A stretch of DNA of 64,000 nucleotides from Escherichia coli (GCF_017348835.2 NZ_CP071375.1), one strand, 5' to 3'; shown: positions 2,334-63,891, counted from the stretch's first letter. The notes: generated by a model not told the origin, from the sequence alone. Program-made: numbers and translations.

Positions 2334-3956
<1,623 letters not shown>

Positions 3957-59388: not shown

Positions 59389-61860
59389 TTAAAAATCAGC
59401 CTGACTCGGGATCAGTTTTTGCCAGATAACTGAAACGTATTTTGCCTGATAACGGGCGTCATCAAGTGCATTATGGCGCTCACCTTCGAATGGAATAGCC
59501 GTTCTGGCATCGAAGTCTATGGCTTTCCCCAGCTCAACGATTGTGCGTACATCGCGATCGTTGTAGTAACGCCACGGGCAGGGGATCCCCTGCCGTTCGT
59601 ATGAACGGCGCAAAATCGTGTTATCGAAGTTGGCTCCATTTCCCCAGACCTGAACAAAAAATTCACCGGAGTTTTCGTCGATAAATTCCCGCAATTGTAA
59701 CAGTGCATCATCTAACGGGATTTCATCGGTCATAATGGCAGATTGCGCTTCGCGTGATTGCTTAAGCCACCATTTAATGGTGTCCCGATCAATGACTCCG
59801 CCAGCAGTTTCCAGATCGATAGTCTTACTAAATTCCGGTCCCATATCTCCGGTTTGCGGATCGAAAAATATTGCACCTATTGAGATGATCGGGGCATCAG
59901 GATTTTTTCCCATGGTTTCAAGGTCGATCATTAGATGGTCACACGTCCTGCTGGTGGATGTGATTTCTTGATGACCGTTCACCTTAATTGAGTGATCTGC
60001 CGTCTCGCCAGTTTCACTATCGCTGGCATGATGCTGATTGCCGCCAGTGTTCTCCTTGTGTGGATGTTCAGCGCCTTCCATTTTCTCCGGATCATCTTCC
60101 TGAACTTCAACCTGATACTCTTCATCGAATGTTTCCTGGTATGTTGCGTCGCCCATCACCGCGCCACAATCAGGGCAGTTGCCGCCGCCGGTCTGACCGC
60201 AGGCGGTGCAGGCTTTTTCCACTTCCTGTTGCGCCACTGGTTCAGGCTGTTTCGTTTCTGGCTCGTTTTGTAACGCATTTGGGCTGTTTTGTTCCGCTTT
60301 TTGGTAGTTCCGTTCCGATTCATGCTGGTTCTGGTTTACAGAATCGCGGGTCTGGATCCCCTTAACCCATTTCGGATCATTCGGGTCGCTAATCCCTGCA
60401 ACAAATTCTCCGCGAGAGGCAGCAAGCAACTTATCGGCGTCAGGCTGGCTGATATTGGCTGCCTGCATAATTTTGTTTACTTCGTCAGCGGTAACTTTTA
60501 CCGGCTCTGGTTGTGCGGTCGTGTCAGATGCACCAGTATTTTGTTGTGAACCTGAGTATGTACTGTTTTTGCGGGCGAAATATTCTTCTTTCGTGATTTC
60601 AGTAGCCCCGGCAGCCAGTGCCTTATCCAGACCAGAAAGTTTGTTTGCGCGACCGTATTTTTCGCCATCCTTGTCGGTGAAGAGGAAGTAGAACGGCCCC
60701 TCACGCTCTACAGATGGTTCGACTTCCACTTTGCATTCGGTTTTTTCGTTGTCCGGAATTGCCGTTTCCACTGCATCAGTTTCTGGTACTGGCGACGAGA
60801 GAGTATCAGTTGCGCTCTGATTTGTTCCTTCATCTTCAAACACGCCCTTTGTAGTCAGGTATTCAGTAATGTATTTGTTCAGTGCCACAGGGTCTTTGTG
60901 AATGTCGATCGGACGTTCACGGACAAGGCCAAAAATAGTCTGGCGGTCGTAGCGAAGGGCATCAGGCTGTTTGCGCATTGATGCCGAGATACGCTTCCAG
61001 TCTTCGCGGTCGTTGTCGATAACTTCATTTTTTGCCCAGCGATGGATGCTGCCGTCAATGTTTCCGGCATCCACATCACCAGGCCAGAGAGCGTAGGCCA
61101 GTTCGTCATCCAGTGTTTTCCATGTCTGCTTGTATTCGCGATGAATGGCAGCAATGACCGGGCTGATTTTTCCTGTTGAATTTTCAGTGTGCTGTTGATT
61201 GGTTCTGGCGCGGGCGAGATCAACAACAGACGTGTATTTTCCGGTTTCCTTGCGTTCACCTTCGCGACGTTTTTTCCAGATGCGCATCTCTGCCTGAATT
61301 TCGGGCCATTTGGCACCAGGCTTACATTTATGCTTAACCCACCCGATGGCATGCAGCTTAAGCTCCGGATACATGGCGTTAACTTCTGGCATTTTCATCA
61401 ACGCTTCAACGATATGTCCGTCGAATGTTGCCATGTCTTCCTGCAACAATTCCTGTGCGCTAATAACCATATCAACGGTGATGTTTTCACATGTGTCGAA
61501 CTTAACCATGACAGCGTTCTGTACTTCAGGGGCCAGCTTGTCAAAAGTGACGTTCATCGGATCTGATTCAGTCTCAACCGGAACAAAGGAAGCAGACTCC
61601 TCATCCCAGCGGTTTTCCTGCATATATTCAGCATCCCATGAATCGAGGGCAGGGCGGGGTATGCCAGGTTTATCCTCGCAGATAATAAATTTATAAGCGC
61701 AGTCCTGAGCAGCCGGATAATGTTCCAGGAATTGCCAGTGAAATTTTGCTCGAGCACGGCGTTCGTCGCCAGCTTCAATAGCTGTGGCTACAGCCACAGC
61801 GCCTTCTTCCCTTGTTGCCAGTTCGTCAGGAATGGCGGCGCAAATAAAGACTTTACTCAT
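59389..61860 (-). CDS. phage exonuclease of the family often annotated exodeoxyribonuclease VIII, with C-terminal DnaQ-like DEDDh 3'-5' exonuclease domain
   Basis: 823 aa; C-terminus carries Exo I (MIDLETMG), Exo II (VWGNGANFDNTIL) and Exo III (HNALDDARYQAKY) motifs; central acidic/Gln-Pro-rich segment with Zn-ribbon-like CTACGQTGGGNCPDCG; sits in the exo/recE slot of a lambdoid early-left operon. Confidence 0.75.
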   Translation of the reverse strand: MSKVFICAAIPDELATREEGAVAVATAIEAGDERRARAKFHWQFLEHYPAAQDCAYKFIICEDKPGIPRPALDSWDAEYMQENRWDEESASFVPVETESDPMNVTFDKLAPEVQNAVMVKFDTCENITVDMVISAQELLQEDMATFDGHIVEALMKMPEVNAMYPELKLHAIGWVKHKCKPGAKWPEIQAEMRIWKKRREGERKETGKYTSVVDLARARTNQQHTENSTGKISPVIAAIHREYKQTWKTLDDELAYALWPGDVDAGNIDGSIHRWAKNEVIDNDREDWKRISASMRKQPDALRYDRQTIFGLVRERPIDIHKDPVALNKYITEYLTTKGVFEDEGTNQSATDTLSSPVPETDAVETAIPDNEKTECKVEVEPSVEREGPFYFLFTDKDGEKYGRANKLSGLDKALAAGATEITKEEYFARKNSTYSGSQQNTGASDTTAQPEPVKVTADEVNKIMQAANISQPDADKLLAASRGEFVAGISDPNDPKWVKGIQTRDSVNQNQHESERNYQKAEQNSPNALQNEPETKQPEPVAQQEVEKACTACGQTGGGNCPDCGAVMGDATYQETFDEEYQVEVQEDDPEKMEGAEHPHKENTGGNQHHASDSETGETADHSIKVNGHQEITSTSRTCDHLMIDLETMGKNPDAPIISIGAIFFDPQTGDMGPEFSKTIDLETAGGVIDRDTIKWWLKQSREAQSAIMTDEIPLDDALLQLREFIDENSGEFFVQVWGNGANFDNTILRRSYERQGIPCPWRYYNDRDVRTIVELGKAIDFDARTAIPFEGERHNALDDARYQAKYVSVIWQKLIPSQADF

Positions 61861-61953: not shown

Positions 61954-62145
61954 TTAAAGACCTGCCGGGATTTCGATATTATCCTGGTGAATAACTTTAT
62001 CGACCGGGTAACAGTTACCGGGAATTTTCTGTTCGGTTGCTGCAGTCATACACTCCTGCATTGTCCTGTGAACACTGACTGCAATATCAACTGGCTCTCC
62101 GGAAACAAGAAAAACTGTCAGAACAAGTGCAAATGCTGTATTCAT
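61954..62145 (-). CDS. YdfD-like small membrane protein
   Basis: 63 aa from Met19 of the listed ORF (MNTAFALVLTVFLVSGEPVD...); its ATG overlaps the dicB-like stop as ATGA; hydrophobic N-terminus; resembles my recollection of Qin prophage YdfD. Confidence 0.55.
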   Translation of the reverse strand: MNTAFALVLTVFLVSGEPVDIAVSVHRTMQECMTAATEQKIPGNCYPVDKVIHQDNIEIPAGL

Positions 62146-62330
62146 TGCCAGCATCCTTTTTGTATCGGACGTAAACGGGCCAACATTGAAAGAATGCATA
62201 TTTTATTTAATAGCTCCCGTTCGTGTTTTCTCTTGTTAATGGCATCTTCAGTAAATACAGGGTTACTGATAGTGACACCAATTTCAAAACAACCTTCAGA
62301 CGTATTAACGTTTGGTAATAACGTTTTCAT
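62142..62330 (-). CDS. dicB: DicB-like cell-division inhibitor
   Basis: 62 aa from the internal Met of the listed ORF (MKTLLPNVNTSEGCFEIGVTISNPVFTEDAINKRKHERELLNKICILSMLARLRPIQKGCWQ); GAGGG Shine-Dalgarno 8 nt upstream; closely matches remembered DicB; lies directly downstream of the DicF-type sRNA. Confidence 0.65.
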   Translation of the reverse strand: MKTLLPNVNTSEGCFEIGVTISNPVFTEDAINKRKHERELLNKICILSMLARLRPIQKGCWQ

Positions 62331-62499
62331 TATCGCGCCCTCAACAATGAGTTTTGTGATGCGGTGCCTGGTGCCTCCAGGTGACGTTAACCAGTTAACA
62401 ACTAACGCCGGATACAGAGAATCCAACCATAACACTGTTTTTGGTTTTAACTGTTCCGCGTGCGCTTAGCCGCATTCACCGCATCACAAAATTCACTTT

Positions 62500-62557
62500 A
62501 AAAAGGGCGGCAGAGCAGTCACGGAGTAAAACTGATACCGCCAAACGTCACCAGAAA
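62500..62557 (-). ncRNA. dicF: DicF-type small RNA with 3' terminator
   Basis: Minus strand reads TTTCTGGTGACGTTTGGCGGTATCAGTTTTACTCCGTGACTGCTCTGCCGCCC followed by TTTTT; I recognise this 53-nt sequence as DicF; position immediately upstream of the dicB-like gene fits. Confidence 0.75.
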
Positions 62558-62819
62558 ATTGATAACAGAGGGCGTTGCAGCGGGGTTGTCACTTAAGCGT
62601 ATGGTCAACCTGACAACCCGGTGTCCTCAACGGGGGAAGGAATAACCCCGCCATACTTACCGCCGCGCCATTTCGCGGATTGCCACAACCAGAAGCGCAC
62701 GGTCGAAGAAATTTAACGACAAGACTTATATGCAAAGGGATCTCGCCGTGCGCTTTCGTGTTATGCCCTGACTTTTCAGGGTAAATTAACCTGTGGAAAC
62801 CTGTTTTTACTGGCGCTAA

Positions 62820-63059
62820 TCAGTTAGCGTTTCTGGCTAACCAGCGATGCGCGGCAGCTTCGGTTTTAAACGTTTTACTTTTGGTATACGTCATCGCGGT
62901 AAACGTGCCGTCCTGATTGGGAAACACGCCACATACCAGAGATTCGTTGTTGCCAAGCTCGATAGTATCCATGCTGACCTCATTTCCCCTTAACGCTGGG
63001 GTAGCGGAACTAAAAACCTGCTGCGCTGTTATACAAAGTGTTCCCGCCGTCATGTTCAT
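62820..63059 (-). CDS. DUF1391 protein (YdfA / YdaF-like)
   Basis: C-terminal 50 aa (MDTIELGNNESLVCGVFPNQDGTFTAMTYTKSKTFKTEAAAHRWLARNAN) resemble the prophage YdfA/YdaF family; an internal ATG at 62972 has a good Shine-Dalgarno (GAGG, 6 nt), so the true product may be the 50-aa form. Confidence 0.55.
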   Translation of the reverse strand: MNMTAGTLCITAQQVFSSATPALRGNEVSMDTIELGNNESLVCGVFPNQDGTFTAMTYTKSKTFKTEAAAHRWLARNAN

Positions 63060-63153
63060 ACGCCTCGGGCTGGCTACTTAATCCCTGACCACAGCCGGGT
63101 AACTCTAGGTATTGCCCTGTATTGTGTGGGACGGGATGGGTTGGTATGGGAAA

Positions 63154-63195
63154 ACTATAGGAAATGCCTAATTGCTTGTCAATAGGCCATGCCTA
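63154..63195 (-). promoter_or_regulatory. PL-like early-left promoter with repressor operators
   Basis: Minus strand TTGACA (63182-63177) -17 nt- TATAGT (63159-63154); flanked by TAGGA-AAT-GCCTA (63158-63170) and TAGGC-CAT-GCCTA (63183-63195), the same TAGGC-N3-GCCTA motif found at the PR-like promoter. Confidence 0.6.
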
Positions 63196-63290
63196 ATGAT
63201 TTGGGTGCGACCTAATAGGTGATGGTTTGTGGGAGAGATAGTAGGAGTTAACTAACGGGAACTAGGAATTTCCCGTCGGACCATATAAGT

Positions 63291-63767
63291 TTAAGTTCCT
63301 GTCTTGGTGATGTTCTGGCTTTTCCGTTTTGATTCTTGATTTTTCAGATAGTTAGCTACCTTCATTTCCATTGCGGCAATGTAGGCGCGAACGTCATGAT
63401 CAACCCAACTAGGCTCCGTAGCATTTCCAGATAAGAGGAAAGCCACAATTGCTCTTTTTTCATCAGAGGCGGCTTGATAAAGGCTGTTTATGTCTAAAAG
63501 TTCACTTTTTGTATCTGAAGTGGATGGGGTTGGTATGGGGTATTCGTTAAGCCCCCAATGCTCTGGACCAACCACATCAGAAAAGAAACGCCATAGTTCT
63601 GGAAGTTTGTCTTTACTTATCGAACCTTTCTTAATCCAGTCATGGATTGATGGTGGTTGGACTTTGAAATGACGTGCGATTTCCGCCTTTGATTTGACGG
63701 CTCCTGATGCAATTTTTTTGTTAATGGCCTGCTCTATCGCTCGGCCTAAGTCTTTACCACTAAGCAT
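63291..63767 (-). CDS. prophage repressor (CI-equivalent; RacR-like)
   Basis: 158 aa; HTH-like segment SKAEIARHFKVQPPSIHDWIKKG; located between PL-like and PR-like promoter/operator regions and divergent from the Cro-like gene; AGGAG Shine-Dalgarno. Confidence 0.65.
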   Translation of the reverse strand: MLSGKDLGRAIEQAINKKIASGAVKSKAEIARHFKVQPPSIHDWIKKGSISKDKLPELWRFFSDVVGPEHWGLNEYPIPTPSTSDTKSELLDINSLYQAASDEKRAIVAFLLSGNATEPSWVDHDVRAYIAAMEMKVANYLKNQESKRKSQNITKTGT

Positions 63768-63794
63768 TGCTTAATAGTCTCCTATGCGCATCGC

Positions 63795-63864
63795 GTTAGG
63801 CAATCCCTACTCTCGAAGCGTTAGGCATAGCCTATTGACAATCGCATTAGGCTAAGCCTAATAT
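63795..63864 (+). promoter_or_regulatory. PR-like promoter with three operator sites
   Basis: TTGACA (63835-63840), 18-nt spacer, TAATAT (63859-63864); operators TAGGC-AAT-CCCTA (63797-63809, imperfect), TAGGC-ATA-GCCTA (63822-63834) and the 17-bp perfect palindrome ATTAGGCT-A-AGCCTAAT (63846-63862) overlapping spacer and -10. Confidence 0.6.
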
Positions 63865-63891
63865 TATTGTGTGTTTTTTGGAGTTCATTCG

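Follow-up and report, generated by a model that had tools for sequence, protein, structure and literature searches.

The question raised by this locus is what lies in the 262 bp (positions 62558–62819) that extend from the stop codon of a DUF1391 (YdfA-like) gene to the small RNA DicF in a 64,000-nt stretch of Escherichia coli DNA (NZ_CP071375.1), which is referred to here as the window. DicF, one of the bacterial small RNAs that have been known longest, has effects on cell division, metabolism, phage resistance and EHEC virulence. The DUF1391 gene (62820–62972, minus strand; Pfam PF07151, E = 9e-29) is positioned directly upstream of the stretch, and its product is 86% identical to K-12 YdfA in a tblastn search; the RefSeq version of the gene comprises 153 nt, and a longer ORF of 79 aa reaches position 63059. 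On the other side, DicF and its Rho-independent terminator occupy 62505–62557 on the minus strand, with a 5′ end at 62557 that begins UUUCUGG. A Rfam scan matched DicF at 62505–62556 (RF00039, 76.7 bits, E = 3e-16, gathering score 48), and this 52-nt covariance model matched nothing within 62558–62819; the stretch is a neighbour of DicF and stands outside the RF00039 family itself.

The genes around the stretch are arranged on one strand in the order repressor, promoter, DUF1391, gap, DicF, dicB, ydfD and a gene with an exonuclease domain, in which the racR-type repressor gene lies at 63291–63767, the sigma-70-like promoter sequence (TTGACA-17-TATAGT) at 63182–63154 on the minus strand, and dicB, downstream of DicF, at 62142–62330 on the minus strand. 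This gene order on one strand supports the view that the stretch would be co-transcribed within one leftward operon and, together with the promoter-like site, bears out the assignment to an early-left operon made in the original prediction. GCCTAAT-type motifs are repeated at 63150–63240 and 63780–63865, on either side of the two promoter-like sites, leftward and rightward, of the racR-type immunity region; they are probably operators. The distal ORF with a 3′–5′ exonuclease domain (823 aa, 59389–61860, minus strand) is intact in the window; the same ORF carries a RefSeq-flagged frameshift in the otherwise identical locus of O103 strain RM8385 and is truncated by IS2 in K-12.

The stretch is present in 4316 of 5426 complete E. 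coli genomes searched by megablast and, given this recurrence, is far from chance sequence; in nearly all sampled genomes, RefSeq has no annotation under the match. The locus of O103 RM8385 is 100% identical to the stretch, and the YdfA-like gene is annotated there. Positions 34–262 of the stretch match K-12 with 91.4% identity over 229 nt (megablast), and the match falls in the untranslated ydfC–dicB spacer, downstream of ydfC, and not in ydfB or ydfC. The proposal that genes of the ydfB/ydfC type sit here conflicts with this position of the match and with a tblastn search of the whole 64-kb window using YdfB (42 aa) and YdfC (72 aa), which returned only chance matches with E > 2 and by which remnants of the two genes were ruled out. 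The spacer match, the YdfA homologue and the missing YdfB and YdfC indicate, at the level of sequence comparison, that this prophage joins a ydfA-like gene directly to a K-12-type dicF leader, without ydfB and ydfC. In the K-12 Qin prophage, the homologous ydfC–dicF region has the same place directly 5′ of DicF and has been called in the literature the “long untranslated region containing dicF”. The Qin leader has the same linker, RNase E site, H2 stem and core as described below; it differs in that K-12 has ydfB, ydfC and 111 nt of spacer, all of which are missing here, and in that hairpin H1 is intact here and weakened in K-12. By homology, the stretch can be solidly identified as the untranslated leader of the DicF precursor, encoded on the minus strand and homologous to the K-12 ydfC–dicF spacer. 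As an RNA region, the DicF precursor leader was known already, and the present copy is unannotated; what is new here is a conserved four-helix fold, a strand with two alternative partners that coincides with the RNase III cut known from the literature, and the recurrence of the folded domain with many different small-RNA modules.

The longest ORFs in the stretch encode 48 aa (TTG start, 62589–62735, minus strand) and 34 aa (plus strand), in agreement with the claim that the gap contains no ORF of 60 aa or more. The short GTG and ATG frames that had been seen by eye also exist, as a GTG frame of 31 aa (62605–62700, minus strand) and an ATG frame of 21 codons (62654–62589, minus strand). The occurrence of frames of 21–48 codons on both strands, and the hypothetical proteins that some phage records annotate over the homologous region, are consistent with a stretch that encodes one or more micro-proteins, as had been suggested; however, each of these frames is intact in only 2–36 of the 62 distinct homologues that span the whole leader (48-aa TTG frame, 2; 31-aa GTG frame, 34; 21-codon ATG frame, 36; plus-strand frames, 2–20), which means that the small ORFs are broken in 40–97% of homologues. 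Most of the breaks are frameshifts, which arise where the 3′ arm of the P2 hairpin, a C-run, varies in length. In addition, no Shine-Dalgarno sequence was found before the small frames of the stretch, their start codons lie within helices, conservation peaks where a protein would not need to be highly conserved, and the region is unannotated in nearly all sampled genomes. The stretch is non-coding, given the disruption of its small ORFs in most homologues and the lack of YdfB and YdfC; micro-proteins were ruled out as a candidate, and a coding role is very improbable. Conservation among homologous regions, which had been proposed as the check, was found for the RNA structure and not for the protein frames. 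In the phage records, genes for a “hypothetical protein” are placed antisense to the core at loci L005 (2545–3000), L141 (4545–4739) and L004 (2295–2867, Salmonella phage F1055); the window does not conserve these frames, which have probably been called in error over a non-coding RNA. Both the gap and the overlying phage “hypothetical proteins” should be labelled as non-coding leader RNA.

Conservation of the stretch at the nucleotide level is highly uneven: among 63 distinct homologues, mean identity is 96% in a central segment, termed here the core or “pro-domain”, and 98% in the linker that follows it, compared with approximately 40% in the apical insert of the upstream stem H2 and 42% in the junction next to the DUF1391 gene. 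A sub-segment at approximately 62566–62692 also matches lambdoid phages without DicF, including cdtI, Ayreon, Stx2c phages and Salmonella phage F1055, as well as the “dicF-like region” that phages P1 and P7 carry in the leader of their ban operon. Sampling by a two-motif pattern search of IMG/VR yielded the core at at least 120 prophage loci. When one genome per species was searched, the core was found only in Enterobacterales, namely in E. albertii, Citrobacter, Serratia symbiotica, Trabulsiella and Izhakiella, and in a few metagenome-bin contigs, which are probably phage DNA; it is also conserved in Salmonella and occurs in 510 plasmid records that correspond to P1-like phage-plasmids.

The core (62574–62689, minus strand, approximately 115 nt) is modelled as a four-helix junction with a probable pseudoknot, all of its elements being on the minus strand. 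Its closing helix P0 pairs GUUGUGGC (62689–62682) with GCUGCAAC (62581–62574); within it, P1 pairs 62678–62674 with 62667–62663, the outer part of P2 pairs 62662–62659 with 62622–62619, the variable inner hairpin of P2 pairs 62650–62646 with 62635–62631, and P3 pairs 62618–62608 with 62598–62584. The pseudoknot would be formed between GUAUGG (62656–62651) and CCAUAC in the P3 loop (62604–62599). A covariance model of this fold, R1, scores the core at 155 bits; it detects the core once in the window and once at each locus. The proportion of paired cells was 96.9% in a model-fitted alignment of 93 loci (81 distinct), with 13 pairs changed on both sides, and 94.9% in a MAFFT alignment of 36 diverse sequences, with 11 pairs changed on both sides; the core sequences are closely related, and these compensatory changes represent few independent events. 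In both alignments, none of 500 shuffles reached the pairing values, and shifted controls were 31–53% paired. P1, P2 and P3 were found independently by RNAalifold, and all four helices also appear when the core alone is folded by minimum energy. The structure is assigned to the operon strand because many of its pairs are G-U.

Compensatory exchanges were observed in several of the helices. The P3 pair GGGUUGUCA/UGACAACCC is replaced by GGGUAACCA/UGGUUACCC in Izhakiella and by GAGUUGCCA/UGGCAAC in phage P1; the P2 hairpin occurs as CGGGG/CCCCG, CUGGGG/CUCCAG, CAGGG/CCCUG and CCCGGG/CCCGGG; and the last pair of P0 is either C-G or U-A. In the pseudoknot, one compensated change was found (GCAUGG/CCAUGC, in the P1 lineage), together with wobble intermediates; three more scans of IMG/VR yielded no further compensated pseudoknot variant and only three uncompensated single changes, that is, natural variants that each break one pseudoknot pair. 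The stability of the core is not unusual (z = −0.7), and in a 190-nt context a nested minimum-energy fold (−69.9 kcal/mol) lies close to the core fold with the pseudoknot (about −67.6 kcal/mol), a difference that energy alone does not decide. Two permissive scans against Rfam 15, which covers riboswitches, ribozymes and other families, gave no match to the core at E ≤ 10, and ARAGORN made no tRNA-like call on it, by which known RNA families were ruled out. Taken as a structural model, the core is a probable conserved four-helix fold with a probable pseudoknot.

A different setting of the core is the ban leader of phage P1 (NC_005856, 68791–68892), which shares P1, P2, P3 and the pseudoknot, including the compensated pair mentioned above, and scores 86–89 bits with model R1. 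As in the window, a repressor-controlled promoter lies upstream of this copy and a terminator hairpin follows the core. The P1 copy differs from the present one in that DicF is missing (no Rfam match at E ≤ 1), as are H1 and H2, the closing helix is different, the flanks are unrelated to the stretch, and the core lies approximately 40 nt from the transcript start.

The half of the leader upstream of the core starts with a junction of 33 nt after the DUF1391 stop codon (62787–62819, minus strand), which is lineage-specific and unconserved; homology to K-12 begins at position 34 of the stretch, that is, after this junction. Hairpin H1 (62766–62781, minus strand; CCCUGA-AAAG-UCAGGG in the transcript) coincides exactly with the hairpin CCCTGA-CTTT-TCAGGG of the original prediction, and the structured RNA that had been considered possible proved to comprise far more than this hairpin alone. 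H1 is the least conserved of the structured elements: its 6-bp form occurs in approximately 34 of the 63 distinct homologues, one compensatory form (CUCUGA/UCAGAG) was found, it is reduced to four pairs or fewer in K-12-type sequences, and other lineages have different hairpins in its place (GCCUG...CAGGC and CCUGG...CCAGG).

H1 is followed by a predicted, interrupted stem of approximately 22 bp, H2 (62690–62765, minus strand). The 5′ strand of H2 is CAUAAC.CG.AAGCGCACGGCGAG (62765–62742), in which CAUAAC comes right after H1, and the 3′ strand is UUCG.CCGUGCGCUU.UG (62707–62690), from which the stem extends into GUUGUG (62689–62684); the partners in the stem are AAGCGCACGG and CCGUGCGCUU, and CAUAAC and GUUGUG, the last of which also forms the 5′ strand of P0. 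A variable apical insert (62741–62708) separates the two strands. Minimum-energy folding of the leader yields H2 in seven of eight lineages, and the middle of the stem changes from lineage to lineage yet remains complementary (GAGAGCA/UGCUCUC in phages of the Salmonella type, GAGGGCA/UGCUCUC in cdtI and Citrobacter). In the alignment of the DicF lineage (A4), 96.6% of the H2 cells are paired, compared with approximately 33% in shifted controls, and there is little covariation. Within the variable insert, a segment of 12 nt, GUCGUUAAAUUU (62709–62720, minus strand), is 99% conserved in the DicF lineage. A near-copy of the 5′ strand of H2, AAGCGCACGCGG, is found further downstream, in a segment of the DicF–dicB interval (62353–62493, minus strand) that resembles Rfam STnc100 below the threshold (37.6 bits; gathering score, 47); STnc100 has been related to the PasD prophage small RNAs (2026 preprint).

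The GUUGUGG strand at the border of H2 and the core is invariant and can pair either with an upstream or with a downstream partner, but not with both at once. The upstream partner occurs as CAUAAC, CACAAC or GCAAC, and the downstream partner as GCUGCAAC, GCUACAAC, GCCACAAC, ACCACAAC or GCCACAAU, and all of these variants keep the pairing. Natural deletions at loci L080 (4483–4613) and L055 (93–222) remove the 3′ strand of H2 and the 5′ strand of P0 and fuse an upstream CAUAACGCGAAA to the P1 hairpin; the segment upstream in these two loci looks like the beginning of the core and may go back to an old partial tandem duplication.

Between the core and DicF lies a single-stranded linker of 16 nt, GCCCUCUGUUAUCAAU (62558–62573, minus strand), which ends at the RNase E cut and DicF +1. 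The linker is 98% identical among homologues and has the same sequence as in K-12; the cut site, AUCAAU/UUUCUGG, is likewise identical, and cleavage in the present strain is predicted from this identity. In K-12, DicF exists in forms of 53 and 190 nt, of which the former requires RNase E, while the 5′ end of the latter is made by RNase III and the form is absent in a Δrnc strain (Ragunathan et al., bioRxiv 10.1101/2023.04.14.536235). The same study describes the 190-nt form as stable, increased when RNase E is inactivated (rne-ts) and accumulating in stationary phase, and reports that bands of the upstream ydfA mRNA are lost in Δrnc (bioRxiv 10.1101/2023.04.14.536235). The two DicF cuts are termed “alternative” in the literature, not strictly sequential. 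The difference between the two forms, 137 nt upstream of DicF +1, corresponds to position 3093 of the K-12 locus and to approximately 62695 in the window, a site that is placed by length arithmetic, within about 3 nt either way, and not from primary mapping. A 1990 study by Faubladier and colleagues reportedly contains the primary mapping of the 190-nt species. By the same arithmetic, a 5′ end at approximately 62695 falls in the 3′ strand of H2, 5–6 nt before P0, and the 190-nt RNA consists of the core, the linker and DicF. As modelled, the stem of approximately 22 bp formed by H2 is a plausible substrate for RNase III. The idea that processing sites of the DicF precursor lie in the stretch was thus upheld, by arithmetic for the RNase III stem and by identity with K-12 for the RNase E site. 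No fold of the 137-nt 5′ domain is described in the K-12 DicF literature that was found, and the Rfam model is confined to the 52-nt DicF.

The explanation of the stretch that is favoured overall, with a probability of roughly 0.55, is that of a DicF-precursor leader that also serves as a platform for two-step processing. The following course of events is proposed. During transcription, GUUGUGG would be captured first by CAUAAC, an upstream look-alike of its final partner, which would complete H2 and lock the 5′ strand of P0. RNase III would then cut H2 at approximately 62695, leaving a short 5′-monophosphate tail on the downstream piece, and leaving H1 on the upstream mRNA, probably as a protective 3′-terminal stem-loop, a role that would fit the loss of ydfA mRNA in Δrnc. 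The freed GUUGUGG would pair with GCUGCAAC to form P0 and close the core, and the closed core would set the 5′-monophosphate end beside the linker, where 5′-end-sensing RNase E could cut AUCAAU/UUUCUGG precisely and free DicF. The chance that this scheme of H2 capture, RNase III cleavage, P0 refolding and RNase E cleavage is right in its essentials is judged to be slightly below even, and the role of the core as a processing platform is likewise a proposal that goes beyond the fold itself. The P1-type copies, which have neither H1, H2 nor the canonical P0 and lie near the 5′ end of the transcript, count against the scheme as a general one, so that refolding triggered by RNase III cannot be what the core does everywhere. 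Moreover, platform duty may not explain the strong conservation of loops and junctions, because simple hairpins suffice for RNase E processing in other 3′-derived small RNAs.

The proposed maturation follows, by analogy, the same logic as two better-known systems, in which a duplex is cut and a fold then guides RNase E. In rRNA precursors, RNase III cuts a long flanking duplex and thereby releases a structured RNA, and in MicL-like 3′-derived small RNAs, folded elements beside a single-stranded site set the exact RNase E cut. Unlike in those systems, one strand of the RNase III stem would here be reused as part of the closing helix, and the released domain would be discarded, the functional small RNA being the short 3′ tail.

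A further property of the core is the regularity of what follows it. At approximately 130 loci, a GGCGG...CCGCC hairpin and a U-run always come 12–57 nt behind the P0 helix of the core, and the seed or loop between the core and this terminator exists in at least nine versions, of which DicF is one and the sole one in Rfam. Distinct modules are found, for example, at the IMG/VR loci L005, L021, L023, L052, L111, L124 and L135, and judged by sequence the non-DicF modules look like unnamed prophage small RNAs. The core may accordingly act as a reusable processing platform, behind which prophages would put different seed-plus-terminator modules. A link to the Pas small RNAs and AgvB was considered and ruled out, these being located in late-gene regions or missing from the variant loci. 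An attenuator in which the 3′ strand of P0 would pair with the 5′ arm of the terminator was likewise rejected; the two are complementary in the DicF lineage, and no covariation was found in cdtI, Serratia and F1055.

The constant position of the core raises the possibility that it acts on transcription instead of processing, as a cis-acting element comparable to HK022 put or to the nut/Nus system, in which the nascent RNA would modify RNA polymerase at the following terminator and so control dicB and the recombination and excision genes in lambdoid phages lacking N. The core occupies the same niche as HK022 put and lambda nut: in every repressor-controlled early operon that carries it, it is the conserved element that comes first, behind the leftward early promoter and before terminators, with an intrinsic terminator always 12–57 nt behind it and a long operon downstream; a search next to the core in Ayreon, cdtI, F1055, an Stx2c phage and the window gave no N-like protein, and its retention in both P1 and lambdoid phages points to a host machine that recognises it. 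In addition, H1 resembles lambda boxB (CCCUGAAAAGUCAGGG compared with GCCCUGAAAAAGGGC), and the 9-mer GCGCGGCGG is common to the core and to the functionally critical part of HK022 putL. However, HK022 putL and putR, which were located by reading the genome, resemble the core neither by BLAST (chance 13-mers only) nor by model R1 (no match at E ≤ 10), so that homology to put was ruled out; put (approximately 70 nt, two stem-loops) also differs in architecture from a four-way junction, and the shared 9-mer, whose structural context differs, is treated as a chance match. Compared with lambda nut, there is no boxA upstream of H1, no N-family gene was detected, and each phage has one copy of the core, with none on the rightward operon; the boxA-like UGCUCUC just 5′ of P0 is the 3′ strand of H2, by which a nut/boxA assignment was rejected. 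No covarying complementarity links the core to the arms of the terminator, which, with only five U residues, may just be leaky. Taken together, a transcription element is an improbable reading of the core.

Somewhat less probable still is an independent function of the 137-nt 5′ domain, which would bind a host protein, act as a decoy for one or sense a ligand, with DicF as a 3′ passenger. The near-invariance of the loop and junction nucleotides, as in aptamers, would suit such a domain, as would the mere three variant loci in three scans of IMG/VR, the stable 190-nt species that accumulates in stationary phase, and the P1 copy near the 5′ end of its transcript with hardly any seed behind it; on the other hand, it matches no riboswitch or ribozyme family in Rfam, it has no obvious expression platform, and no candidate for the ligand or the protein has emerged. 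The simplest account, in which the leader is only a spacer, conserved by recent descent and by hitch-hiking with DicF and folding as any GC-rich sequence would, draws on the identity of more than 90% among most copies, the non-significant z-score of the core and the few covariation events. It is unlikely in view of conservation that drops sharply from 96–98% in the core and linker to approximately 40% in the H2 insert, of the persistence of the core in P1 and in five other genera despite different flanks and a different downstream small RNA, and of helix changes that are compensatory or compatible with wobble pairing, well above shuffled and shifted controls. The DicF-precursor leader with two-step processing is preferred to these readings, and it has consequences for the annotation of the region. 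Databases model only the last 52 nt of DicF, whereas the preceding 137 nt would form a fold whose conservation extends over approximately 80% of the complete E. coli genomes and beyond them to P1-like phage-plasmids and several other genera. The fold offers a concrete structural hypothesis for the 190-nt species and for maturation by two nucleases, and the core is a candidate for a new Rfam family.

A broader and tentative extension, which we consider doubtful, is that the core represents an undescribed class of structured RNA that serves temperate enterobacterial phages, lambdoid and P1 alike, as a universal “launch pad” before interchangeable seed-plus-terminator cassettes, its RNase III-switched fold (H2 to P0) recruiting a host machine, either RNase E by way of the 5′ monophosphate or RNA polymerase. 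If this were true, the machine recruited would decide between an ending as a small RNA and read-through into toxic early genes, and DicF would be one member of a larger family of phage small RNAs processed from a pro-domain. The position of the core before at least nine mostly unnamed modules resembling small RNAs also offers a simple route to new prophage small RNAs. At five of the loci, L004 (Salmonella phage F1055), L011, L132 (Serratia), L133 (Trabulsiella) and L136 (Izhakiella), the terminator hairpin behind the core holds AGGAG-N6-8-AUG, from which a mini-ORF of approximately 11 codons (AUGUUCUACCG...) runs through the 3′ arm of the terminator and the U-tract, an arrangement that looks like a translation-coupled attenuator.
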